DNA from: Candidatus Saccharimonadota bacterium
Lineage (GTDB): Bacteria; Patescibacteriota; Patescibacteriia; 2-12-FULL-60-25
Reading direction: 5' to 3'
Assembly (NCBI GenBank): GCA_016699205.1
Contig: CP064964.1
Span: 630,001 to 662,000, forward strand
DNA: 32,000 bases
In this document: positions 20,335 to 32,000 of the stretch, in pieces
How positions within the stretch are numbered: position 1 is the stretch's first letter
Layout: each line of letters starts with the position of its first letter
Translations under genes and position numbers: made by a program
Notes under the pieces: model-generated
What the model saw: only the letters and a program-made list of their open reading frames with translations
Told to the model about the DNA's origin: nothing
The model's database searches: none

Positions 20335-20459
20335 AATTGTTTCACGTGAAACATTTTTGAATCGCTCGGTAATGTTTCACGTGAAACCATCTTAGAACTT
20401 GTTTCTTTATAATGTTAGTTTTGTTTGCCATCGCAGTAAGAATGTTTCACGTGAAACAT
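20335..20459 (+). repeat. 3x parS cassette, copy A (direct repeat of 20586-20712)
   Basis: About 125 bp, alignable by eye with copy B apart from a few substitutions and a small indel. Site centres are 35 and 70 bp apart. Confidence 0.85.
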
Positions 20460-20473
20460 TGTTTAATGCCTTT

Positions 20474-20549
20474 GGGCCAATAGCTCAGTTGGTAGAGCGC
20501 TGCATTCGCATTGCAGAGGTCAGGAGTTCGAATCTCCTTTGGTCCACCA
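20474..20549 (+). tRNA. tRNA-Ala (CGC), CCA encoded
   Basis: Hand-folded: acceptor GGGCCAA/TTGGTCC with the G3:U70 Ala identity pair, anticodon loop UUCGCAU, T-arm AGGAG-TTCGAAT-CTCCT. Confidence 0.9.
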
Positions 20550-20554
20550 TAATG

Positions 20555-20584
20555 AAAACCGCCAATTGGCGGTTTTTGTTTTTA
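20555..20584 (+). terminator. intrinsic terminator after tRNA-Ala
   Basis: AAAACCGCC-aatt-GGCGGTTTT followed by tgttttt. Confidence 0.75.
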
Positions 20585-20585
20585 T

Positions 20586-20712
20586 AATTGTTTCACGTGA
20601 AACATTATTGAATCGCTCGGTAATGTTTCACGTGAAACCATCTTAGAACTTGTTTCTTTTTTAAATGTTAGTTATGTAAACCATCGCAGTAAGAATGTTT
20701 TACGTGAAACAT
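20586..20712 (+). repeat. 3x parS cassette, copy B
   Basis: Direct repeat of 20335-20459. Site centres are 35 and 72 bp apart, and the third site carries a C>T change. Confidence 0.85.
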
Positions 20713-20978
20713 ATGGTTTATTGCTCTGGTTAGTTTCAATCATTTTCTACAAGCTACTATACTTATTGGTTAGTCACATTGGTTGCTTATCTACCCTCAG
20801 TTGTCTACTTATATTGATGTTATTAATACGTTGTTTCACGTGAAACATATGTTTATTCTTACTAGCTTCGCTATTTATCTTTATACAGTCTAATGATGTT
20901 TCAAATGACTTAATTTCAATGCAGATAGATACTATTTAATAGTAATACGGTTCTATATGTGAATGTTTCACGTGAAAC

Positions 20979-21278
<300 letters not shown>

Positions 21279-21457
21279 AGATGTGTTTGTTTCACGTGAA
21301 ACATTGTTATTACTTGTTCAATTAAATTGATTTATTCTGCAATTACGCATTTACTTCATGACTATTTAATTTATCAATGCGATTTAATTAATTTTTTTTG
21401 GCTAATATTAAACATTAAATATTAATATATATCTTTTACGACTCTTATTTATACCGG

Positions 21458-21486
21458 TTGAAGAAACATTGATTTTTTGCTAAAAT
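21458..21486 (+). promoter_or_regulatory. promoter candidate TTGAAG-N17-TAAAAT (surface-protein operon)
   Basis: Hexamers at 21458-21463 and 21481-21486. The predicted transcription start is only a few nt before the GTG 21493 / ATG 21499 starts, so the mRNA would be leaderless or nearly so. Confidence 0.45.
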
Positions 21487-21498
21487 AGATGTGTGCGA

Positions 21499-22416
21499 AT
21501 GAACAAAGGATTGCTCCTTATATTGTGTTGCTCCCTCTTGATGGTTGGGAGTAGGGCTTTGGCGATGTCGAGTACGAATTTTCTCATTCAATGGGATAAT
21601 GTGAATTCGGGAGGTTTGGATAATTCAAGCAGCACAAACTTTTCTTCTCGAGACACACTTGGCGATAATGCTTCTGGTACAAGTACGAGTGCCAACTTTC
21701 AACTTTCGGCTGGTTATCGAGCGCCTGAGGGGGCAGATACTCTGACTTATCAGGTTCGCGCCCGTTCTACGTCAGTGAATTCGGCTTATACGGCGTTTAA
21801 CGATGGTGCGAATACCGTTACCTTATCTTCGGTTGCTGGTTTTGCTATCGGAGACTTGATTTCGGTCGTAGAAAATAATGATTTTTCGCAGCTTGTTGCT
21901 GTTGGAAGAATCACAAATATTGCCGGGCTTGTCGTAACTGTCGATGATTTTGAAGGGGATGGTGGAAGTATGAGTGCTTTGCCTGCCGGTGGTGATGACT
22001 TGGTATATCTTTTGAATTCGAACTCTATTAACTTTGGTTCTATTTCATCCGGTTTTCCGTATACGTCGGTTGTAGGGACGTCCGTGCTGACGAATGTTGC
22101 TACGGGTTACAGTCTTTATGTTCTAGCTAACCAAGAATTGCAGAATGGTTCAGCTCAAGTTATTGCGGCGGTGAGTGATGGCACGGTATCGCTGGGAGTA
22201 GAGGAGTATGGCGCAGAAACGACCGGTGCTTCTGCATTTTCCGCAGGTGTCGACATCGGTGTTACGACATCGCAGCGTGTCGTGCAGACGTCGGTGGCGA
22301 CCACGGGGCCGATCTCTGACAAGATTGGGATGATTTTTAAACTTTCCATTACATCGTCTACGAATGTAGGAACTTACTCGCAGAACGTGTATTACACGTT
22401 AACGGCGAACTACTAG
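21499..22416 (+). CDS. exported hypothetical protein with triplicated S-[ST]-x-N-F motif and beta-rich C-terminal domain
   Basis: Signal peptide MNKGLLLILCCSLLMVGSRALA. Three motif copies: SSTNFLIQ, SSSTNFSS, STSANFQLS. C-terminus ...GTYSQNVYYTLTANY. The track starts it at GTG 21493. Confidence 0.75.
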   Translation: MNKGLLLILCCSLLMVGSRALAMSSTNFLIQWDNVNSGGLDNSSSTNFSSRDTLGDNASGTSTSANFQLSAGYRAPEGADTLTYQVRARSTSVNSAYTAFNDGANTVTLSSVAGFAIGDLISVVENNDFSQLVAVGRITNIAGLVVTVDDFEGDGGSMSALPAGGDDLVYLLNSNSINFGSISSGFPYTSVVGTSVLTNVATGYSLYVLANQELQNGSAQVIAAVSDGTVSLGVEEYGAETTGASAFSAGVDIGVTTSQRVVQTSVATTGPISDKIGMIFKLSITSSTNVGTYSQNVYYTLTANY

Positions 22417-22417
22417 T

Positions 22418-23353
22418 ATGCGATTTCGTTCTTTGTGCTTTATCGCCGTCATGATGTTCTCGCTCGTTATCGGAACTTCCGTGCAGGCGATTAGTGTTAG
22501 CCCAGCGATTATCGATGTTGGTGCTGATGCCGGCAAACAAGTGGATTTTTCTATCTTGGTTACGAATGAAGAAGCGGAGACGCTTTCTTTTGCTTTAACG
22601 ATTCAGAAGTTTATTCCGCAAGGGGATGGCGGCGGTACGCAGTTTTTACCGCAAGAAGATACGAGTGGTTTGCCGGATTGGCTTTACCTTGAAGCGCCGA
22701 CGCTAACCTTACGTGCTGGTGAAAGCCGACGCATGCCCGTTTCTTTACGTGTTCCCAATGATGCGACTCCTGGCGGTCACTACGCAGCGATTTTCTTAAC
22801 GCAGACAAGTTTGGATACGGCTGCTGGGCAAAACGTATCGGCGATTCCGCGTATCGGGGTTTTAGTTTTTGCCACGGTTAATGGGACGATGGTTGAGCGA
22901 TTGGCTTTGCGTAACGCTCGTACTGAGCAAGTAAATGGCAGTCATTTGCCGGTTCGATTTATTGCCGATGTTGAGAATCAGGGAAATATCCATGTTCAGC
23001 CTGAAGTGAAGATCGATATTACCAATATGTTTGGCCAGACGGTTGCTACGATCGATGGAAACAGTGTAGATGCCAGAGTCCTTCCTGGTTCAAAGCGTAT
23101 TTTTGCTAGTGAGTGGAGCAAGAGCGATGTGAAAATCGGAACGGGTTTTTGGGATGAGCTGAAGCAAGAGTGGGAGAATGGCGCGATTGGCTGGTACGAA
23201 GCTCGTGTTCAGGTTTCCAGCCGCGCTGGTTCTGCGGGGGAATCAAGAATTGGTTTCCAGGTTTGGCCGTGGAGAAGTTTGTCGATCGGTGCAGGTTTGT
23301 TGGTGTTGGTTGGGTTTGTGCTTTGGATGATTCGTAGGATATTCCGCCGATAG
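22418..23353 (+). CDS. exported, C-terminally membrane-anchored Ig-like protein (architecture reminiscent of DUF916-type cell-surface proteins)
   Basis: Signal peptide ...VIGTSVQA|ISVSP. A beta-sandwich-like body (...PGGHYAAIFLTQ...). A C-terminal TM segment GAGLLVLVGFVLWMI plus a basic tail RRIFRR. Only 1 nt separates it from the upstream stop. The family assignment is tentative. Confidence 0.7.
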   Translation: MRFRSLCFIAVMMFSLVIGTSVQAISVSPAIIDVGADAGKQVDFSILVTNEEAETLSFALTIQKFIPQGDGGGTQFLPQEDTSGLPDWLYLEAPTLTLRAGESRRMPVSLRVPNDATPGGHYAAIFLTQTSLDTAAGQNVSAIPRIGVLVFATVNGTMVERLALRNARTEQVNGSHLPVRFIADVENQGNIHVQPEVKIDITNMFGQTVATIDGNSVDARVLPGSKRIFASEWSKSDVKIGTGFWDELKQEWENGAIGWYEARVQVSSRAGSAGESRIGFQVWPWRSLSIGAGLLVLVGFVLWMIRRIFRR

Positions 23354-23424
23354 GCTCGGCCATCGACCTTGTTTCCTTTGTAAGAAGGAATGACAGGGCC
23401 GGCTGCTGAGGATTACGAACCTTT

Positions 23425-26400
23425 ATGACAAAGCGTTTTCAACGTATTTTTGCCACGGTGTTATCCGTGTTGTTTGTTGTTGCGCCGCTTGCGCAGACGC
23501 ACGCTGCAACGCTCACTGGTCGCCGTGACATCATGTCGCGTCAGGAACCTTCTACGCTTTCCAATCACGAGATCCGTTTTATTACACCGAGCGGAGTTGA
23601 CGCGCCGTCTGATACGATAACGATTAATTTTCCTATTGGATTCAATGTTGCGCCGATAACGGCGGGGGATGTCGATCTTTATCATGGTGCTGTCACGGGT
23701 TTTGAAACGAATGAAACCGTTGCAGCAACGGCAGCGGCTGGTGTTTGGGGTGCTGCTGTATCAGGTAGAACGCTTACGCTGACAGCCCCGACCGATGCAG
23801 CGGGTGGTGAGATCGCTGTTAACGATGTTGTGCAGGTGCGAATCGGTACAAATGCAGCAGGCGGAACAAATCAGATTACTAATCCGACAGGTGGCGGAGG
23901 CGCGGTCACGATTTCTGTCGGCGGCACGTTTGGGGATGCGGGTGGTATTGATGTTTTTATTGAAACTGGGGATACGATCGGTATCTCAGCGTCTATTGCC
24001 GCGACTTCAACGCCTGGTGGTGGTGGCGGGGGTGGTGGGTCGAGCGGGGATTTAACTCCGCCATCGATTTTGAATATTCAGGTTTTGAATATTACGACGT
24101 CGACCTCGCTTATTACTTGGGATACGAGTGAGGCAGCGACGACTTATATTGTTTGGGGAACAGATATTTTCTATACGTTAGGTACTTTTTCAAATCCTAC
24201 CTATACGATTGGGCACTCGGTGCCTTTGAGTGGATTGCCGCCCGGGACTGTCATCCATTTCCGTATTACAGCGGTTGATCCGGGAGGGAATACGACGCAT
24301 AGTACGGATCAGACGTTTACGACGCTATCGATTCCTGCGGCGCCTATCATTACCAATGTTCAGGCGGTTGCCATTACGGATACGAGTGCGTTGATTACTT
24401 GGAATACCAATATTCCTGCTTCGAGTATCGTTGATTTTGGCCTGACTGCGGGTTATGGATCTGTTGCGACAGCGCCGGGAGATGTAACAAGTCATGCGGT
24501 ATTTTTGAGCGGGCTTTCTCCGGTAACTCCTTATCACTTCCGCGTTCAATCAACAGAGCCGAGTGCATTGTTAACGGCGGTGTCTGGTGATTTTGTTTTT
24601 ACAACGACTGGCGATATTACAGGTCCAGCGAATGTGTTTGGTTTTACCGCAACACCCGGCAATTCTCAGAACTCACTTAATTGGAATAATCCATCTGACC
24701 CAGATTTTTCCTTTGTACGTATTCGCGCGAGAACGGATGGATATCCATCGGGGCCGGATGATGGACGATTTGTTTATCAGGGTAATGCGAGCTCGTTTAT
24801 CGATGCAGGCTTGGTAAACGGTGTTACCTATTTTTACGCGAACTATGCTTTTGATGGATCGGGGAATCGCTCTAGTGGCGCGTTTGCACAAGCGACTCCT
24901 TTTGGATTGCCTTTGCCTCCGCCGACCTCCACGCCGCCAACTCCTCCAACACCGCCAACGCCGCCAGTCGTCACACCTCCTGTTGGCGGAGGAGGCACGA
25001 CGACTCCGCCTCTTCCACCTATCGGTGCAGCTACTCCGACACCTCCGATCATTTTGCCGCCTACATCGACTCCTCCGGAAGAGCTGAGCGCACCGGCTAT
25101 TTCCATCAGACCTACCTATTATGCTGGCGGTGGATCGATTTTGCTTGAACCGGATATTAGCGGTGCCGTTGGTACCGCGCCTGGTGCTCCGGTGCTGGTG
25201 CGAGTTCCTGTTACGAGCCTACCATCACAACCCACGAGTGCCGTGATCCGTGTCGGCGGATCTGTTTATGCGCTCTCGCCATTGCCCGGTGGTACTGAGT
25301 GGGGTGCAACATTTGTGCCTTCTCGCGGTGTTGAGCGTGTTCCTGCAACCGTCCAGTTTCAATTAGAGGATGGGAGAACGGCGGCTGCATCTACCGTTAT
25401 TGAAACGAGACCATCGGGACGCGTTTTGGAAAGAAAGGGAGTTACTGCTGATTTAACTCCAGTACCAGGAGCCATCGTGCGTTTGTACGAGTCTGTGAAT
25501 GGGCAGTGGCAAGAATGGCAGGGTGCTCGATATGGACAGTCGAATCCTGTAGAAACCGGTGCTCCAGGCGCCTATGGATTTGTTGTAAGGAATGGCCAAT
25601 ATCGTGTTGTTGTTGAGAAAGATGGATATGTTACACAAGAAAAGAGTTTAACTGTTACCAGAAACTACGCATCGATTGATGTTATTTTACCTAGCGAGGT
25701 AGATGTTCCAGTTGTCGGTCCGATTTTGGAGTTCCTTCAGTCGGAAACAGCTCGTGATACGGCGAATATCGCGGCACCAATCGCTGTTGCGCTTGCGCTC
25801 GCCAACTTGGCGGCCGCGGCTTCCTTGTTTAGCCTGCTTAACTACATTTGGTTCTTGCTTACGCAGCCGATTTTGCTCGTCGGACGTAAGAAACGTGACA
25901 AATGGGGTATTGTTTACAATTCTTTGTCTAAACACCCGCTTGATTTAGCTGTTGTTCGTCTTATTCAAGCGCAAACTCGTACGGTTGTTCAGACTCGTGT
26001 TACCGATGCTAAGGGCCGATTTGCGTTCCGAGTAAGGCCTGGTTTGTATCGTATTGAGGTCGTGAAGCCGGGATTTGTTTTTCCTACGGTGTTTTTGAAG
26101 GAGGAAAAGGAAGATGTTGATTTTGTTGATCTTTATCATGGTGAGAATATCGAGGTTAAAGAGGAGGCGAATATCGCGGTGAACATTCCTTTGGATCCTG
26201 CTAAGGCTGAAGAAACGCCGTTTGCCATCCGCGCCAAGCGATTTTTGAGACATGCACAGCACGCATTCAGCCTTTTGAGTGTCATTGTAACGATTATTGC
26301 GCTTATCATAGCTCCAAGTTGGTTATTAGTTGGTCTGTTGGCGTTGCAAGTGCTCACGTATTTCTTGTTTAGACGCCTTGCTTTGCCTAAGAAGCCTAAA

Positions 26401-26694
26401 GAGTGGGGTATTATCTACGATCAGAAAACTCGACGTCCTTTGGGAACGGTTATTGTTAGAATCTTTGATAAGAAGTTCAATAAGCTTTTGGAAACTCAGA
26501 TCACGGATTCCAAGGGGCGATATGGATTCTTTGCCTCTAAGAACTTTTATTTTGTGACGGCGGATAAAACAGGCTTTGAAAAGTACCGATCAGAGGACAT
26601 TGATCTCGTGAATGCGAAGGAAGCTGTGATTGATAAACACATTTCTCTTAAAAAACTTACTAACAATTTATCCACAGAAAAAAAGAAAGTTTAA
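23425..26694 (+). CDS. large surface protein: signal peptide, Gly-rich region, 3 FN3-like domains, Pro/Thr linker, CarboxypepD_reg-like domains alternating with TM segments
   Basis: Signal peptide ...APLAQTHA|ATL. FN3-like repeats (...TSLITWDTSEAATTYIVWG..., ...SALITWNTNIPASSIVDFG..., ...NSLNWNNPSDPDFSFVRIR...). Linker PPTSTPPTPPTPPTPPVVTPP. Three TDxKGR[FY]xF modules. Hydrophobic helices near aa 790-830 and 975-1015. Confidence 0.85.
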   Translation: MTKRFQRIFATVLSVLFVVAPLAQTHAATLTGRRDIMSRQEPSTLSNHEIRFITPSGVDAPSDTITINFPIGFNVAPITAGDVDLYHGAVTGFETNETVAATAAAGVWGAAVSGRTLTLTAPTDAAGGEIAVNDVVQVRIGTNAAGGTNQITNPTGGGGAVTISVGGTFGDAGGIDVFIETGDTIGISASIAATSTPGGGGGGGGSSGDLTPPSILNIQVLNITTSTSLITWDTSEAATTYIVWGTDIFYTLGTFSNPTYTIGHSVPLSGLPPGTVIHFRITAVDPGGNTTHSTDQTFTTLSIPAAPIITNVQAVAITDTSALITWNTNIPASSIVDFGLTAGYGSVATAPGDVTSHAVFLSGLSPVTPYHFRVQSTEPSALLTAVSGDFVFTTTGDITGPANVFGFTATPGNSQNSLNWNNPSDPDFSFVRIRARTDGYPSGPDDGRFVYQGNASSFIDAGLVNGVTYFYANYAFDGSGNRSSGAFAQATPFGLPLPPPTSTPPTPPTPPTPPVVTPPVGGGGTTTPPLPPIGAATPTPPIILPPTSTPPEELSAPAISIRPTYYAGGGSILLEPDISGAVGTAPGAPVLVRVPVTSLPSQPTSAVIRVGGSVYALSPLPGGTEWGATFVPSRGVERVPATVQFQLEDGRTAAASTVIETRPSGRVLERKGVTADLTPVPGAIVRLYESVNGQWQEWQGARYGQSNPVETGAPGAYGFVVRNGQYRVVVEKDGYVTQEKSLTVTRNYASIDVILPSEVDVPVVGPILEFLQSETARDTANIAAPIAVALALANLAAAASLFSLLNYIWFLLTQPILLVGRKKRDKWGIVYNSLSKHPLDLAVVRLIQAQTRTVVQTRVTDAKGRFAFRVRPGLYRIEVVKPGFVFPTVFLKEEKEDVDFVDLYHGENIEVKEEANIAVNIPLDPAKAEETPFAIRAKRFLRHAQHAFSLLSVIVTIIALIIAPSWLLVGLLALQVLTYFLFRRLALPKKPKEWGIIYDQKTRRPLGTVIVRIFDKKFNKLLETQITDSKGRYGFFASKNFYFVTADKTGFEKYRSEDIDLVNAKEAVIDKHISLKKLTNNLSTEKKKV

Positions 26695-26717
26695 AACTAA
26701 TTTAATTAGCTAATATT

Positions 26718-26741
26718 AGCACCGTATGAACGGTGCTTTTA
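26718..26741 (+). terminator. intrinsic terminator
   Basis: AGCACCG-tatgaa-CGGTGCT followed by tttat. Confidence 0.6.
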
Positions 26742-26949
26742 TAAAACCTTATACTTGATGTGAGCTTAAAAAACCGCTTAGTCCACAACTAAACGGGGAT
26801 TGGTTCCTAGGTCTACGCTGCGAGTAGGAGAGTTTCCTTCGCTATCGATTGGGGAATCGAAAGCACTTATAAGGAAAAATGGTCTGCTCTTCTGCGAGTA
26901 ACACGTAGTCATGTTGTGACTGGCGTTAAATGCGCCTGTCGATTCTGAC

Positions 26950-29865
26950 GTGCAAACTCATCGTACTTTTATCGAATCTGTAATCGCATCCCCATGCGAG
27001 TTATTTGCGTTTATAAAGCGATTTTTCAGCTCCCAAGACCAGGGACGCGGAACAAGAATCGCAACGTTGGTAGCAGGTATCGTGATGACATTCGGAATAT
27101 TTGGCGCGCAAAGTGCGAGTGCGGCTATTCCGAAGGTTATTAACTATCAATCGCGATTAAGAAATAGTGGTTTATCAGCCATTACGGCTTCAACAACGAT
27201 TCAGTTTACGATTTATAACGATTTGTCGGCTGGATCGTATACAGATCCTGCGACTGCTGGTGGTCCGTTGCTTTGGAAAGAAATTCACGACGGAGGTGCT
27301 TGTGCCAAGGCTCAGCCTGATGCGGATGGTTATTTCTCTGTTCAGCTCGGTGCTTGTACGGCTTTCCCGTCCTATATTGATTGGAATCAGCCGCTTTACT
27401 TAGGTGTGCAGATCGAATCTGATCCGGAAGCATCTCCTCGCGTGCTTTTGGCGGCATTTCAATATGCTTTGAACTCGGATGCGGTTGATACGTTCAGCGC
27501 ATCGTCGACGGCTGCTGCAGATACCTTGCTCGCGCTCGACTCGAATCTCAATTTCAACATTCTAACCGGGGGCTTCTTGGGCGGTTACTTCACGATGAGC
27601 TCGACCACCGCTAATAACGGTATTGCGGGCAACCTCTCTATCGCTGGAAACTCCATTATTGGTGATAGCTCAGCGGATTTGGTCACGGTTAACGGTCGAT
27701 TTAACTCTGATCTGATTCCTTCGCTTGATCTTACGTATAGCCTTGGATCGGCATCGAATCGATGGAATGCGTTCCTTGGTAACGTGACGAGCGTGAATGT
27801 TACGAGTAGTAACTTCTTTACTGACACGCTTGTCGCGACTAATGGCACGGTAACTAACAATTTTGGTGTTACAAACATTGTTTGGACGAATGCGACGGGC
27901 ACCAATACCACCTCGACCAATCTTTTCTCGACAAATTTTGGTGCGACAACGGCAACTATTCAGAATTTGGTGTTGGGATCGCCGCTTAATCTCACAAACC
28001 TTACTTGGGTAAATGGAACGGGCACCAATACAACGTCGACGTATTTCTTTGCGAATACATCGACGATTGTCAGTTTGAACTCGACCTATGGATCGTTTAC
28101 GGAATTGACGATTGTTAATGCAACCGCAGGAACATTGAACGCAACAACGGTTACGACCACAAATTTGTTTGTCGGTGGGCGAGCCGTCTGTCTTGAGGAT
28201 GGGACGAATTGTCTTACCTCTCCTGAGACGGACAGCTTGCTTACGGTTACAAACAGGGGATCGGTTGCAACAGCAACGGTTACGCTTTTTGGTGGACTAG
28301 TTAGTGCAAATCTTACGGTTACAGGGACGAGCAACTTACAGGGAACAACGTTTACCAATGCAACGGGAACAAATTTAGTGGTGACGAATGTCACATCGAC
28401 GAATGCAAGCTCGTCGAATCTGCAAGCCAATATCGCCACCTTCGCCACGGCCACTGTCTCAGGCCAGGCTATCTGTCTCTCCAATGGCGTTGGCTGTCCT
28501 TCGACTTCGGCTGAAGCCGACACCCTCGCCTCGGTGACGAACCGTGGAGCCTTTGCGACTTCAAGCGTCACCTTGTTTGGCGGCCTCACGGTTTCCAACC
28601 TCACGGCCACGGGTACCACTTCTCTCCAGAACACCACCATCAGCAATGGCACAACCACCAACTTCGCGGTTACGGGTGCCGTCAATTCCAACCTCATCCC
28701 GGCCGCTGATCTTGCATTCTCGCTTGGAAACGCTACCAATCGCTGGAATGCGAATCTTGGGAACGTGACGAGTACTTCGGTCACGACCACCAATCTCTTT
28801 GCGACCAATGCCTTCGTCGATACCCTCGGCGTCACCACCTTCAGCGCCTCTTCGGGCACGATCACGAACTTCCTGTTTGCCAATGCCACGGGTACCAATC
28901 TCTTTGTTACGAACTTCAATGCCGGTACTGGATCGATCAACAATTTCACCAGCAACTCTTCGACGATTACGAACCTCTTCTCGCCCGCGGCCACGTTCAC
29001 GTCTTCCTCGATCGTGAACCTCACCGCCACGACCGCGACCATCACGAACTTGGTCCTTGGTTCACCTCTCAATCTCACCAATATCACCTGGGTGAATGCG
29101 ACGGGTACCAATACGACTTCAACGAATCTCTTTGCCACCACCTTCGGCTTTACCAATGCGACGGGCGACTCGCTCACTTCGAACATCGCCAACATCAACA
29201 CCCTCACTTCGGTGAATGGTTCGATCACGACGCTCACTTCCACTTCCGGCACCATCGCCACCTTCAACTTTGAGAATGCCACCGGTTCCTCCCTCTACGC
29301 CTCTACGATCCAGGCGACGACGGTGTCTTCGACGGCCGTGTTCGTCAACGGCGTTGCTGTGTGTCTCGCTTCCGGCACCAACTGTCCGACAGGAACCACG
29401 CCAAATCTCCAGACCGTGACGAATGCCGGCAATACGACGACGCGTGCCATCCAGTTTGCTGGCGGTACTTCGACTGCCGACTTTGTCTTCAATACCTCGG
29501 CCACGGTCAACGGTATCTTCACGGCCAACGGTCAGAGCAATCTCCAGAACGTTTCGTTCTTGAATGCCACTGGTTCGTCCCTCTTCGTCTCCTCCTTACG
29601 GCCACCAACGGCACCATCGATACCTTGGTCTCGACCAATGGCACGATCACTTCCTTGTCGGCAGTCTCCGTCACGACCACGAACCTGCTCGCTGCCTCCA
29701 CCACGGTCACGGGCACGCTCACGGCAAACAATGCGACGGCGACCACACTGCAAGCCAATATCGCCACCTTCGCTACGGCCACTGTTTCAGGCCAGGCTAT
29801 CTGTCTCTCCAATGGCGTTGGCTGTCCTTCGACTTCGGCTGAAGCCGACACCCTCGCCTCGGTGA
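26950..29865 (+). CDS. giant Asn/Thr/Ser-rich fibre-like surface protein, 5' segment (native frame ends near 29597; the last ~90 codons of the ORF are out-of-frame)
   Basis: Signal/TM region RGTRIATLVAGIVMTFGIFGAQSASA. An N-terminal IPKVINYQSRL...FTIYN...LLWKE...GYFSVQLG...LYLGVQI domain of the kind seen in proteins annotated as tail-fiber domain-containing. Repeated LGxAxNRWNA and V.G.A[IV]CL..G..C motifs. The tail LRPPTAPSIPWSRPMARS... is P/R/S-rich frameshift junk. The GTG start is uncertain. Confidence 0.7.
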   Translation: MQTHRTFIESVIASPCELFAFIKRFFSSQDQGRGTRIATLVAGIVMTFGIFGAQSASAAIPKVINYQSRLRNSGLSAITASTTIQFTIYNDLSAGSYTDPATAGGPLLWKEIHDGGACAKAQPDADGYFSVQLGACTAFPSYIDWNQPLYLGVQIESDPEASPRVLLAAFQYALNSDAVDTFSASSTAAADTLLALDSNLNFNILTGGFLGGYFTMSSTTANNGIAGNLSIAGNSIIGDSSADLVTVNGRFNSDLIPSLDLTYSLGSASNRWNAFLGNVTSVNVTSSNFFTDTLVATNGTVTNNFGVTNIVWTNATGTNTTSTNLFSTNFGATTATIQNLVLGSPLNLTNLTWVNGTGTNTTSTYFFANTSTIVSLNSTYGSFTELTIVNATAGTLNATTVTTTNLFVGGRAVCLEDGTNCLTSPETDSLLTVTNRGSVATATVTLFGGLVSANLTVTGTSNLQGTTFTNATGTNLVVTNVTSTNASSSNLQANIATFATATVSGQAICLSNGVGCPSTSAEADTLASVTNRGAFATSSVTLFGGLTVSNLTATGTTSLQNTTISNGTTTNFAVTGAVNSNLIPAADLAFSLGNATNRWNANLGNVTSTSVTTTNLFATNAFVDTLGVTTFSASSGTITNFLFANATGTNLFVTNFNAGTGSINNFTSNSSTITNLFSPAATFTSSSIVNLTATTATITNLVLGSPLNLTNITWVNATGTNTTSTNLFATTFGFTNATGDSLTSNIANINTLTSVNGSITTLTSTSGTIATFNFENATGSSLYASTIQATTVSSTAVFVNGVAVCLASGTNCPTGTTPNLQTVTNAGNTTTRAIQFAGGTSTADFVFNTSATVNGIFTANGQSNLQNVSFLNATGSSLFVSSLRPPTAPSIPWSRPMARSLPCRQSPSRPRTCSLPPPRSRARSRQTMRRRPHCKPISPPSLRPLFQARLSVSPMALAVLRLRLKPTPSPR

Positions 29866-32000
29866 CGAACCGTGGAGCCTTTGCGACTTCAAGCGTCACC
29901 TTGTTTGGCGGCCTCACGGTTTCTGACCTCACGGCCACGGGTACCACTTCTCTCCAGAACACGACCATCAGCAATGGCACAACCACCAACTTCGCGGTCA
30001 CAGGCCTCGTCAATTCCAATCTCATCCCAGCCGCTGATCTTGCGTTCTCGCTTGGAAACGCTACCAATCGCTGGAATGCGAATCTTGGGAACGTGACGAG
30101 TACTTCGGTCACGACCACCAATCTCTTTGCGACCAATGCCTTCGTCGATACCCTCGGCGTCACCACCTTCAGCGCCTCTTCGGGCACGATCACGAACTTC
30201 CTGTTTGCCAATGCCACGGGTACCAATCTCTTTGTCACGAACTTCAATGCCGGTACTGGATCGATCAACAATTTCACCAGCAACTCTTCGACGATTACGA
30301 ACCTCTTCTCGCCCGCGGCCACGTTCACGTCTTCCTCGATCGTGAACCTCACCGCCACGACCGCGACCATCACGAACTTGGTCCTTGGTTCACCGCTCAA
30401 TCTCACCAATATCACCTGGGTGAATGCGACGGGTACCAATACGACTTCAACGAATCTCTTTGCCACCACCTTCGGCTTCACGAATGCCACGGGCGACTCG
30501 CTCACCTCGAACATCGCCACCATCAACACCCTCACCTCGGTGAATGGTTCGATTACGACGCTCACTTCCACTTCCGGCACCATCGCCACCTTCAACTTTG
30601 AGAATGCCACCGGTTCCTCCCTCTACGCCTCTACGATCCAGGCGACGACGGTGTCTTCGACGGCCGTGTTCGTCAACGGCGTTGCGGTGTGTCTCGCTTC
30701 CGGCACCAACTGCCCGACAGGAACCACGCCAAATCTCCAGACCGTCACGAATGCCGGCAATACGACGACGAATGCCATCCAGTTTGCGGGCGGTACTTCC
30801 ACGGCCGACTTTGTCTTCAATACCTCGGCCACGGTCAACGGTATCTTCACGGCCAACGGTCAGAGCAATCTCCAGAACGTTCTGTTTACGAATGCGACGG
30901 GCATCCTTGTTCGTCTCCTCCTTACGGCCACCAACGGCACCATCGATACCTTGGTCTCGACCAATGGCACGATCACTTCCTTGTCGGCAGTCTCCGTCAC
31001 GACCACGAACCTGCTCGCTGCCTCCACCACGGTCACGGGCACGCTCACGGCAAACAATGCGACGGCGACCACACTGCAAGCCAATATCGCCACCTTCGCT
31101 ACGGCCACTGTTTCAGGCCAGGCTATCTGTCTCTCCAATGGCGTTGGCTGTCCTTCGACTTCGGCTGAAGCCGACACCCTCGCCTCGGTGACGAACCGTG
31201 GAGCCTTTGCGACTTCAAGCGTCACCTTGTTTGGCGGCCTCACGGTTTCTGACCTCACGGCCACGGGTACCACTTCTCTCCAGAACACGACCATCAGCAA
31301 TGGCACAACCACCAACTTCGCGGTCACAGGCCTCGTCAATTCCAATCTCATCCCAGCCGCTGATCTTGCGTTCTCGCTTGGAAACGCTACCAATCGCTGG
31401 AATGCGAATCTTGGGAACGTGACGAGTACTTCGGTCACGACCACCAATCTCTTTGCGACCAATGCCTTCGTCGATACCCTTGGCGTCACCACCTTCAGCG
31501 CCTCTTCCGGCACGATCACGAACTTCCTGTTTGCCAATGCCACGGGTACCAATCTCTTTGTCACGAACTTCAATGCCGGTACTGGATCGATCAACAATTT
31601 CACCAGCAACTCTTCGACGATTACGAACCTCTTCTCGCCCGCGGCCACGTTCACGTCTTCCTCGATCGTGAACCTCACCGCCACGACCGCGACCATCACG
31701 AACTTGGTCCTTGGTTCACCGCTCAATCTCACCAATATCACCTGGGTGAATGCGACGGGTACCAATACGACTTCAACGAATCTCTTTGCCACCACCTTCG
31801 GCTTCACGAATGCCACGGGCGACTCGCTCACCTCGAACATCGCCACCATCAACACCCTCACCTCGGTGAATGGTTCGATTACGACGCTCACTTCCACTTC
31901 CGGCACCATCGCCACCTTCAACTTTGAGAATGCCACCGGTTCCTCCCTCTACGCCAACACGATCCAGGCGACGACGGTGTCTTCGACGGCCGTGTTCGTC
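28420..32000 (+). repeat. tandem repeat, 1326-bp (442-codon) unit, about 2.7 copies, continuing past window end
   Basis: The same landmarks recur at 28544/29872/31198, giving offsets of 1328 and then 1326 nt. By eye, copies 2 and 3 differ at only three sites (five nt). Copy 1 differs at a few dozen positions. Confidence 0.9.
29598..32000 (+). CDS. giant fibre-like surface protein, 3' continuation in the -1 frame (open to window end; not in ORF track)
   Basis: My own translation of the frame whose codons start at positions divisible by 3 is stop-free from before 29598 to 32000. It reads TATNGTIDTLVSTNGTITSLSAVSVTTTNLLAAST...QANIATFATATVSGQAICLSNGVGCPSTSAEADTLASVTNRGAFATSS..., the same protein repeat as the upstream segment. 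Confidence 0.65.

Follow-up and report, generated by a model that had tools for sequence, protein, structure and literature searches.

The gene cluster

This report concerns a cluster of four co-directional open reading frames (ORFs), here called g1 to g4, on the plus strand of a 32,000-nucleotide (nt) stretch of contig CP064964.1. The window, as used below, is the whole of that stretch; g4 runs off its end. The g2 protein is 100% identical to IPH19_03340, a hypothetical protein of a Candidatus Uhrbacteria bacterium whose NCBI lineage is Patescibacteria group, Parcubacteria group, Ca. Uhriibacteriota. An earlier note, made from the sequence alone, described the four genes as an exported cell-surface cluster. 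Its claim that all four ORFs carry signal peptides holds: in each protein a hydrophobic N-terminal segment is followed by an AxA-type cleavage motif (ALA/M, VQA/I, THA/A and ASA/A in g1 to g4, respectively), and it is from hydropathy and this motif that the signal peptides are predicted. Only 1 nt lies between the g1 stop codon and the g2 start.

The system against which the cluster is read here is the Pam pilus of Ca. Mycosynbacter amalyticus (Saccharimonadia), the filaments of which have been solved (Troman et al., bioRxiv 10.64898/2026.03.03.709456). In that preprint the pilins PamA and PamB have an N-terminal domain joined by a linker strand, which is donated, to a truncated immunoglobulin (Ig)-like C-terminal domain, PamT is proposed as a tip pilin without the linker, PamC and PamD are proposed as membrane-anchored PapD/FimC-like chaperones that work with no usher, and PamR is proposed as an FnIII-containing, membrane-anchored terminator (bioRxiv 10.64898/2026.03.03.709456). 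The NCBIfam models NF058579 (PamT) and NF058581 (Pam pilin C) derive from the same work (bioRxiv 10.64898/2026.03.03.709456).

The NCBIfam, AlphaFold2 (AF2) and Foldseek results mark g1 (21493-22416, plus strand; 307 amino acids, aa) as a PamT-like, putative cap or tip pilin; its true start is likely the ATG at 21499. A signal peptide (aa 1-24) is followed by a conserved region with a triple S-T-N-F/Y motif (aa 25-76, nt 21565-21720), a small inserted beta-barrel (aa ~84-165, nt 21742-21987) and, at the C-terminus, an Ig-like domain of the Pam_pilin_C type (aa ~168-307, nt 21994-22413) whose last residue is aromatic. The triplicated STNF motif reported earlier is indeed there, as SSTNF, SSTNF and TSANF within residues 26-70. 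Pfam gave no match to g1 at E < 0.1. Two models of NCBIfam release 20 did match, namely CPR_pilus_PamT (NF058579; E 2e-11, 43.7 bits, residues 8-96), which was retained after the signal peptide was removed, and CPR_Pam_pilin_C (NF058581; E 0.0043, 17.1 bits, aa 175-252). Among 37 aligned members of the g1 family (g1 and 36 relatives) the PamT model matched all 37 (best E 3.6e-14) and the Pam_pilin_C model 14 (best E 3.4e-11), and the orthologue at one related locus, L029, covers positions 2-148 of the 148 in Pam_pilin_C at E 7.7e-7. On these profile matches g1 belongs to the Pam pilin superfamily, and a pilin homologue is therefore present where the earlier note had seen none.

The AF2 model of g1 has a mean confidence score (pLDDT) of 82.9; it is confident for aa 80-307 and scores below 50 for aa 19-79, a stretch that is disordered in the model yet is the most conserved part of the family. 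The Foldseek list for this model consists mostly of chaperone-usher pilins (CfaE, CfaB, CsuA/B, the pilin domain of PapG, and FimG), and comparison with CsuA/B (7zl4) gives a root-mean-square deviation of 3.6 over 144 columns. Every member of the g1 family has a C-terminal aromatic residue. A g1 profile search of 1.84 billion representative proteins found 2168 relatives (protein clusters), the majority of which are ~210-240 aa long and match g1 residues 1-90 and 170-305. Since these short relatives skip the middle of g1, g1 is a PamT-like protein into which a beta-barrel of ~80 residues has been inserted. One short form (P0206) has source-named relatives in Falkowbacteria, Magasanikbacteria and the "Patescibacteria group". 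Sequence searches of the PDB with the profile of the g1 family and with that of the g1 C-terminal domain returned nothing useful and no WxL chain, and I therefore claim no relationship between the Pam C-terminal domain and the WxL domain. The PamA and PamB structures (25PZ, 25QA) were absent from the results of all PDB searches run.

The second gene, g2 (22418-23353, plus strand; 311 aa), encodes a chaperone-like protein with two Ig domains, of the WxLIP or PamC-PamD type, as judged from AF2, Foldseek and Pfam. Its AF2 model (pLDDT 89.5) consists of two beta-sandwich domains and a C-terminal helix; the hydropathy scan and the model together place the C-terminal transmembrane (TM) helix at aa 285-310 (nt 23270-23347), with RRIFRR after it, in agreement with the Ig-like protein with a C-terminal TM anchor that had been noticed before. 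The top PDB match in Foldseek is the Enterococcus faecium WxLIP 9i25_C ("bound to long WxL"; E 2.6e-12), with 9i1y also found, and after WxLIP come the chaperones CsuC, CfaA, Caf1M, DraB, SafB and EcpB at E 1e-10 to 1e-7. The likeness to WxLIP extends to sequence: g2 itself lies under the Pfam threshold for PF06030 (WxLIP_PGBD/DUF916), which is matched by 18 of 44 members of the g2 family at E < 0.01 (best E 1.2e-7), and the g2-family profile aligns with EfmWxLIP1 over the full length at E 1.5e-4. By sequence profile, g2 is homologous to WxLIP (DUF916/DUF3324), and it has the fold of a chaperone-usher chaperone. Its architecture further suggests a membrane-anchored, PapD/FimC-like two-domain chaperone of the PamC/PamD type.

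Pfam, hydropathy and profile comparison make g3 (23425-26694, plus strand; 1089 aa) a candidate donor-only anchor. Behind the signal peptide (aa 1-27) lie a domain resembling the pilin N-terminal domain (aa 28-180, nt 23506-23964), a candidate donor strand, DTIGISASIA (aa ~181-194, nt 23965-24006), a Gly-rich hinge, two to three FN3 domains (aa ~210-497, nt 24052-24915), a Pro/Thr-rich spacer (aa ~498-575) and a beta-sandwich/CarboxypepD_reg region (aa ~576-778). The remainder comprises a first hydrophobic region (aa 779-819, nt 25759-25881), a CarboxypepD_reg domain (aa 828-912), a second hydrophobic region (aa 943-985, nt 26251-26379) and a last CarboxypepD_reg domain (aa ~995-1070). Pfam finds fn3 at E 8e-11 and CarboxypepD_reg at E 3e-19 over three stretches, and the hydropathy scan gives each hydrophobic region ~40 residues, so that the FN3, CarboxypepD_reg and TM segments first read from the sequence are all accounted for. 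The spacer (TPPTPP...) is encoded by an 18-nt tandem repeat at 24926-24959, likely a site of variation in stalk length. A weak match to a tail-fibre PHROG also lies inside g3 (E 6e-4 over ~25 residues).

The connection between g3 and the pilins is provided by Falkowbacteria. At locus L045 the PamT-like gene is followed by a gene for a 352-aa two-domain pilin (L045:10714-11772), the C-terminal half of which is Pam_pilin_C (full model, E 9.5e-12) and the N-terminal half of which is homologous to g3 residues 1-228 (E 2e-14). An alignment (A6) shows the strand D-x-V-x-V-S-A-x-V to be common to the g3 orthologues and the two-domain pilins; past this shared strand the L045 pilin continues into an acceptor domain, whereas g3, in which there is no acceptor domain, continues into the Gly-rich hinge and FN3. 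Furthermore, at the more distant locus L048 the counterpart of g3 is a protein of 458 aa in which the signal peptide is followed directly by the strand AVTDSFRVGFTVTSA, the N-terminus of the mature protein; a Gly-rich hinge, two FN3 domains and a TM helix at the C-terminus complete it, and this minimal strand-FN3-TM anchor has the architecture reported for PamR. The linker strand had also been considered as the most conserved part of g3, as is reported for the Pam pilins, and the conservation profile contradicts this.

The C-terminal 310 residues of g3 contain the two hydrophobic regions; behind each of them come a basic K/R-x-W-G-I/V-x-Y motif and then a CarboxypepD_reg domain, which is transthyretin-like. 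No other piece of the system is as well conserved as this membrane module (window 25759-26634, aa 779-1070; 45-50% identity), which is a separate protein in Falkowbacteria (L045:15783-18419) and Magasanikbacteria (L044:12269-13915). Under the positive-inside rule both of its CarboxypepD_reg domains may face the cytoplasm, an unusual arrangement if so. Between the genes for the FN3 anchor and the membrane module, the Falkowbacteria locus has a small inserted DUF559/MTES_1575 gene (Vsr-like endonuclease fold; L045:15272-15643).

The fourth gene, g4, encodes a giant Thr/Asn/Ser-rich fibre, traced by its ORFs and its relatives through a first frame at 26950-29591 and a continuation in another frame at 29592-32000 (both plus strand), where it leaves the window. 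A signal peptide (aa 1-58, with cleavage at ASA/A) precedes a conserved N-terminal domain (aa ~59-190, nt 27124-27519), and the repeats come after that domain. It had been read as one ORF of more than 1680 aa, and that reading fails: the frame from 26950 ends at the stop codon 29863-29865 after 971 aa, of which the last ~90 residues are out of frame, and the Thr/Asn/Ser-rich reading resumes at 29592 in a frame without a stop codon from 29274 to the window end. The tandem units of g4 measure 1328 and 1326 base pairs (bp) and start at 28391, 29719 and 31045, with copies 2 and 3 being 99.4% identical and copies 1 and 2 94%. The corresponding unit of L006, a close relative, has 1329 bp and keeps the frame, with NATGSSLFVSLLTATNGT at the unit junction; every readable junction in the window lacks one G by comparison (GTCTC^CTCC; 29591/29592 in the first junction). 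At the junction near 30900 (30882-30925) an extra 2-nt deletion upstream compensates, restoring the frame as NATGILVRLLLTATNGT and recoding five residues, SSLFVS to ILVRL. The first junction (29554-29600) does not have the compensating deletion and its frame is shifted; a recombinant or chimeric repeat junction thus underlies the frameshift. The shift may be real, leaving g4 truncated or switchable on and off by recombination, or it may be an assembly chimera.

The g4 orthologues in L006, L007 and L008 (JGI 3300056827, 3300056789) have 7602, 2807 and 5378 aa, respectively, in near-identical loci with the same percent identities to the window for g1-g3. Such a spread in length points to a polymorphic repeat number or to collapse of the 1329-bp units during assembly; polA of L006 is split into three ORFs, which indicates indel errors in that assembly. 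Complete orthologues of 1284-1591 aa end in acidic tails rich in Pro, Glu, Ser and Thr, and their last 120 residues contain no TM segment and no LPXTG motif. The N-terminal domain is 25-36% identical across distant loci and more so in close relatives. Searches of Pfam (E < 0.1), NCBIfam, PHROG (both frames) and PDB sequences yielded no match to g4. Three minus-strand ORFs mirror the g4 repeats (28086-29282, 29519-30610 and 30860-31936; 358-398 aa, near-identical to each other); I rejected them as genes, since the biased composition of the repeats almost certainly produces them.

Conservation of the cluster

A scan for synteny with a 12-sequence g1 alignment as the query, over one genome per GTDB species, returned 35 loci. 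In 34 of these species-representative loci g1, g2 and g3 occur in order, which gives the conservation of gene order in relatives by which the earlier note would have the cluster judged. The order is kept even in a relative with only 30% g1 identity. The g4 N-terminal domain comes next in about half of the loci, many of the others ending too soon to show g4, and nearly all 35 loci lie downstream of polA-holA-rpsT. Several contigs that bear the cluster, L010, L013, L015, L030 and L043 among them, have titles that name an "uncultured Gammaproteobacteria bacterium", "Candidatus Methylomirabilis sp." or an "Anaerolineae bacterium", probably as placeholders or because Patescibacteria contigs were mis-binned.

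More divergent loci show how the parts can be rearranged. In roughly ten of the Uhrbacteria loci, all among the more divergent, g1 and g2 are separated by an additional gene, and the one in L029 (11086-12165) encodes a second pilin of 359 aa with a full-length Pam_pilin_C match. Two-domain pilins are thus found in related clusters at L029:11086-12165, L045:10714-11772 and L047:12773-13951, the last of these in company with three chaperone paralogues and giant neighbours. The order in Magasanikbacteria (L044) is PamT-like, chaperone, membrane module and g4-like; in L046, at another chromosomal position, it is PamT-like, chaperone, FN3 anchor and fibre; and in L048 it is chaperone, PamT-like, minimal anchor and fibre. 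The pilin N-terminal domain has been shuffled between g3 and the two-domain pilins, which argues for one functional system. The genes g1 to g4 are one modular system and not a chance juxtaposition.

Interpretation

The homologies, folds, domain architectures and synteny described above are best explained, at a probability of roughly 0.7, if the cluster encodes an usher-less, chaperone-assisted surface fibre held together by donor strands, a compact and divergent form of the Pam superfamily found in Uhrbacteria, Falkowbacteria and Magasanikbacteria. Sec would export all four proteins. Held at the membrane by its C-terminal helix, g2 would act as a chaperone of the PapD/CsuC type and cap the incomplete Ig-like C-terminal domain of g1. 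The strand of g3 would then be donated into g1, and g3, having no acceptor domain of its own, would be terminating subunit, stalk and membrane anchor in one, much as PamR, with its FN3 domains and Pro/Thr-rich spacer serving as the stalk. As no polymerising two-domain pilin is encoded in the cluster, the product would be a g3 stalk capped by g1 or else a homopolymer of g1, the latter built via the conserved N-terminal STNF region and terminated by g3. The likely distal adhesin is g4, which would consist of an N-terminal docking domain and a fast-varying repeat shaft and be held by g1 or g2. The product is most likely a device for attachment at the cell surface.

Several points weigh against this proposal. 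The curated NCBIfam cut-offs are 240 bits for the PamT equivalog and 55 bits for Pam_pilin_C; g1 scores 43.7 and 17.1 bits, and even the highest-scoring of the relatives tested fall short, at 77 and 45 bits. The g1 family thus consists of divergent PamT-like relatives rather than PamT equivalogs, with homology at the level of domains. The Foldseek E for g1 was never better than 1.8e-3, which is weak. In g3, the candidate donor strand is only moderately conserved across 35 orthologues, and the strongest-conserved motifs of the N-terminal region sit inside the N-terminal domain and not in the linker strand; the assignment of a donor strand consequently rests on comparative architecture. The likeness of g2 to PamC/PamD and of g3 to PamR is likewise one of architecture rather than of direct comparison, and conserved adjacency alone ties g4 to g1-g3. 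Furthermore, g4 is frameshifted in this assembly: compared with the in-frame repeat of L006, 1 nt is missing between 29591 and 29592. No polymerising two-domain pilin was found in 21493-32000 or among the genes scanned upstream, which are housekeeping genes, and a long filament is therefore not to be taken for granted. Finally, I infer the contacts between subunits, as well as the donation of the strand, the order of the subunits, the attachment of g4 and the role in host attachment.

Could the same proteins form a static complex of the WxL type? In such a complex, of the kind proposed for WxLIP in Firmicutes, g2 would permanently tether g1, g4 or both by an inserted strand, subunits would not exchange strands with one another, no polymer would form, and g3 would be an independent surface or membrane protein. 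The solved structure closest to g2 is, after all, a WxLIP, including 9i25 with its WxLIP bound to a long WxL, and the WxLIP/DUF916 homology of g2 is seen in sequence as well. The composition of the cluster also parallels that of a WxL cluster in its small secreted protein, giant adhesin and TM-anchored Ig-Ig protein (PMC10599100), and the window has no polymerising pilin. However, neither g1 nor g4 has a WxL domain (Pfam, E < 0.1), the profile of the g1 C-terminal domain retrieves no WxL chain from the PDB, and g1 matches the Pam pilin models instead. A static tether would, moreover, leave the pilin N-terminal domain and strand of g3 with no role, and genuine two-domain pilins occur in related clusters. 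I thus regard a static complex as unlikely.

It is far less probable that the four are unrelated envelope proteins (S-layer, cell-wall-associated or enzyme-scaffold) that merely share an origin-proximal neighbourhood. It is true that FN3 and CarboxypepD_reg, the domains of g3, are of a generic kind, that no family is recognisable for g4 and that the cluster sits in a housekeeping region, with polA-holA-rpsT in nearly all loci and dnaA-dnaN upstream in the window. Against this, the genes remain adjacent and in order at identities as low as 30% and from Uhrbacteria to Falkowbacteria and Magasanikbacteria, even at the different chromosomal position of L046; g1 and g2 are tightly juxtaposed; and the members shuffle domains among themselves, the pilin N-terminal domain being found on g3 and on two-domain pilins alike. 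That g4 and the genes around it are what is left of a prophage tail-fibre module, as the repeat-rich, fibre-like composition of g4, the "tail fibre-like protein" of the Pam preprint and the weak PHROG match of g3 (E 6e-4) might suggest, is effectively refuted by a chromosomal locus that is conserved across species, a window free of phage genes and the lack of any PHROG match for g1 or for g4 in both frames.

Comparison with known systems

The donor-strand fibre proposed here is closest to the Pam pilus. Like PamT, g1 has the N-terminal motif region, and like the Pam pilins it has the truncated Ig-like domain of Pam_pilin_C; g2 combines two Ig domains with a C-terminal TM helix, as do PamC and PamD; and g3 resembles PamR in being FN3-containing and membrane-anchored, with a candidate N-terminal donor element. 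In both systems there is no usher or secretin, a giant fibre-like gene is adjacent (the preprint calls its conserved neighbour a "tail fibre-like protein"; bioRxiv 10.64898/2026.03.03.709456), and the organism belongs to the candidate phyla radiation (CPR). The differences are that the window has no polymerising pilin of the PamA, PamB or PamE type, that a beta-barrel domain is inserted in g1, that g3 is fused to a polytopic membrane/CarboxypepD_reg module undescribed in the Pam preprint, that the locus adjoins parS, polA and rpsT rather than the ATP synthase genes next to Pam, and that the organism is Ca. Uhrbacteria. The preprint mentions neither WxL proteins nor Uhrbacteria (bioRxiv 10.64898/2026.03.03.709456).

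In the WxL clusters of Firmicutes, WxLIP (DUF916-DUF3324-TM, CscA; PDB 9i1y, 9i25) has the same Ig-Ig-TM architecture as g2, and AF2 predicts that a strand of WxLIP is inserted into its partner (Hassan et al., 2023, PMC10599100). Both kinds of cluster also pair a small secreted subunit with a very large adhesin. However, WxL clusters carry at least two proteins with a WxL domain, and no such domain was found in g1 or g4 (Pfam, E < 0.1); here there is no LPXTG protein and the partner of g2 would be a Pam-type pilin.

The chaperone-usher pili (archaic Csu, alternate CFA/I, classical Caf1, Pap and Fim) share the chaperone fold of g2 strongly. The C-terminal domain of g1 resembles the pilins CsuA/B, CfaB and FimG, although this fold match is weak, and the conserved aromatic residue at the pilin C-terminus fits donor-strand complementation. 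On the other hand, g1-g4 have no usher-type Pfam match and there is no further ORF in the cluster to encode an usher. There is also no outer membrane; the anchor here is an inner-membrane protein; g2 is membrane-anchored whereas the known chaperones are soluble and periplasmic; and no sequence-level match to chaperone-usher Pfam families was found. TasA fibres and archaeal bundling pili, donor-strand fibres made by monoderm cells, are similar in their secreted beta-rich subunits and usher-less strand complementation, but the fold match of g1 to TasA (8aur, E 0.07) is too weak to count as evidence, no gene for a SipW-type signal peptidase is present here, and the cluster has a dedicated chaperone-like protein.

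A broader idea is offered tentatively, and I consider it somewhat improbable. Pam pili, the WxL/WxLIP clusters of Firmicutes and the present cluster might be branches of one ancient family of usher-less donor-strand surface systems, suited to cells that lack an outer membrane and built on a membrane-tethered Ig-Ig chaperone. The Uhrbacteria form would have been reduced to a non-polymerising cap, stalk and anchor (g1 on g3), with the anchor fused to a polytopic module whose possibly cytoplasmic transthyretin-like domains could signal across the membrane, and it would display g4, varying in repeat number and switching frame, as the element of host recognition.

Genomic context

The region 5' of the cluster in the window contains dnaA, dnaN, a class A penicillin-binding protein gene, polA, a holA-like ORF, rpsT and two tRNA genes, with ~11.5 kb between dnaA and the cluster; the holA (DNA polymerase III delta) label is given by correspondence to related loci. 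The placement of the cluster directly 3' of a centromere region, also claimed before, is borne out by an array of nine parS-like sites, TGTTTCACGTGAAACA, at 20338-21303 (no strand assigned; six perfect and three with one mismatch), where 0.02 would be expected by chance. This array is context and lies outside the system. Nine sites within 1 kb make an unusually dense centromere array for a ~1-Mb genome, and a ~125-bp block with three of the sites is duplicated, flanking tRNA-Ala (20335-20459 and 20586-20712). Between sites 8 and 9 lies a (GTTA)n microsatellite of ~300 bp (20982-21278; ~77 copies broken by GAA/AGA runs) that ends ~215 bp 5' of g1; it may vary in length and thereby alter parS spacing or g1 expression.

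Directly 5' of g1, at 21458-21486 on the plus strand, TTGAAG-17-TAAAAT with a TG matches the consensus of a sigma-70-like promoter; scans of the region for promoters and terminators gave no more matches than shuffled sequence, which makes this call weak evidence. Elsewhere in the window a ComEC-like ORF on the minus strand (717-1883; 388 aa) has the Competence domain as its only match and may be a short form or a truncated gene.

Significance

The cluster is a divergent, compact variant of the Pam family with a WxLIP-related chaperone, in a CPR lineage that the Pam preprint omits. The earlier view of it as a dedicated surface appendage or adhesion system is upheld by the homologies and the conserved gene order. 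Its "unrecognised function" and the statement that none of the proteins matches a family are superseded, given the Pam pilin in g1, the WxLIP/chaperone homology of g2 and the pilin N-terminal domain of g3; the novelty of the set, which that note held open to refutation by confident homology to a known system, is largely lost with them.

Host attachment in CPR/Patescibacteria is largely unknown, and the sole description of the Pam pilus, a 2026 preprint, concerns one Saccharimonadia isolate. A related system is now seen as a conserved, origin-proximal feature of a second CPR lineage, Ca. Uhrbacteria and its relatives. The locus displays a modular logic of cap pilin, tethered chaperone, donor-only anchor and giant fibre, and its chaperone component is linked to the WxLIP of Gram-positive pathogens and commensals. 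It thereby offers subunit pairs that can be tested and, in g4, a candidate hypervariable adhesin for studies of host range.

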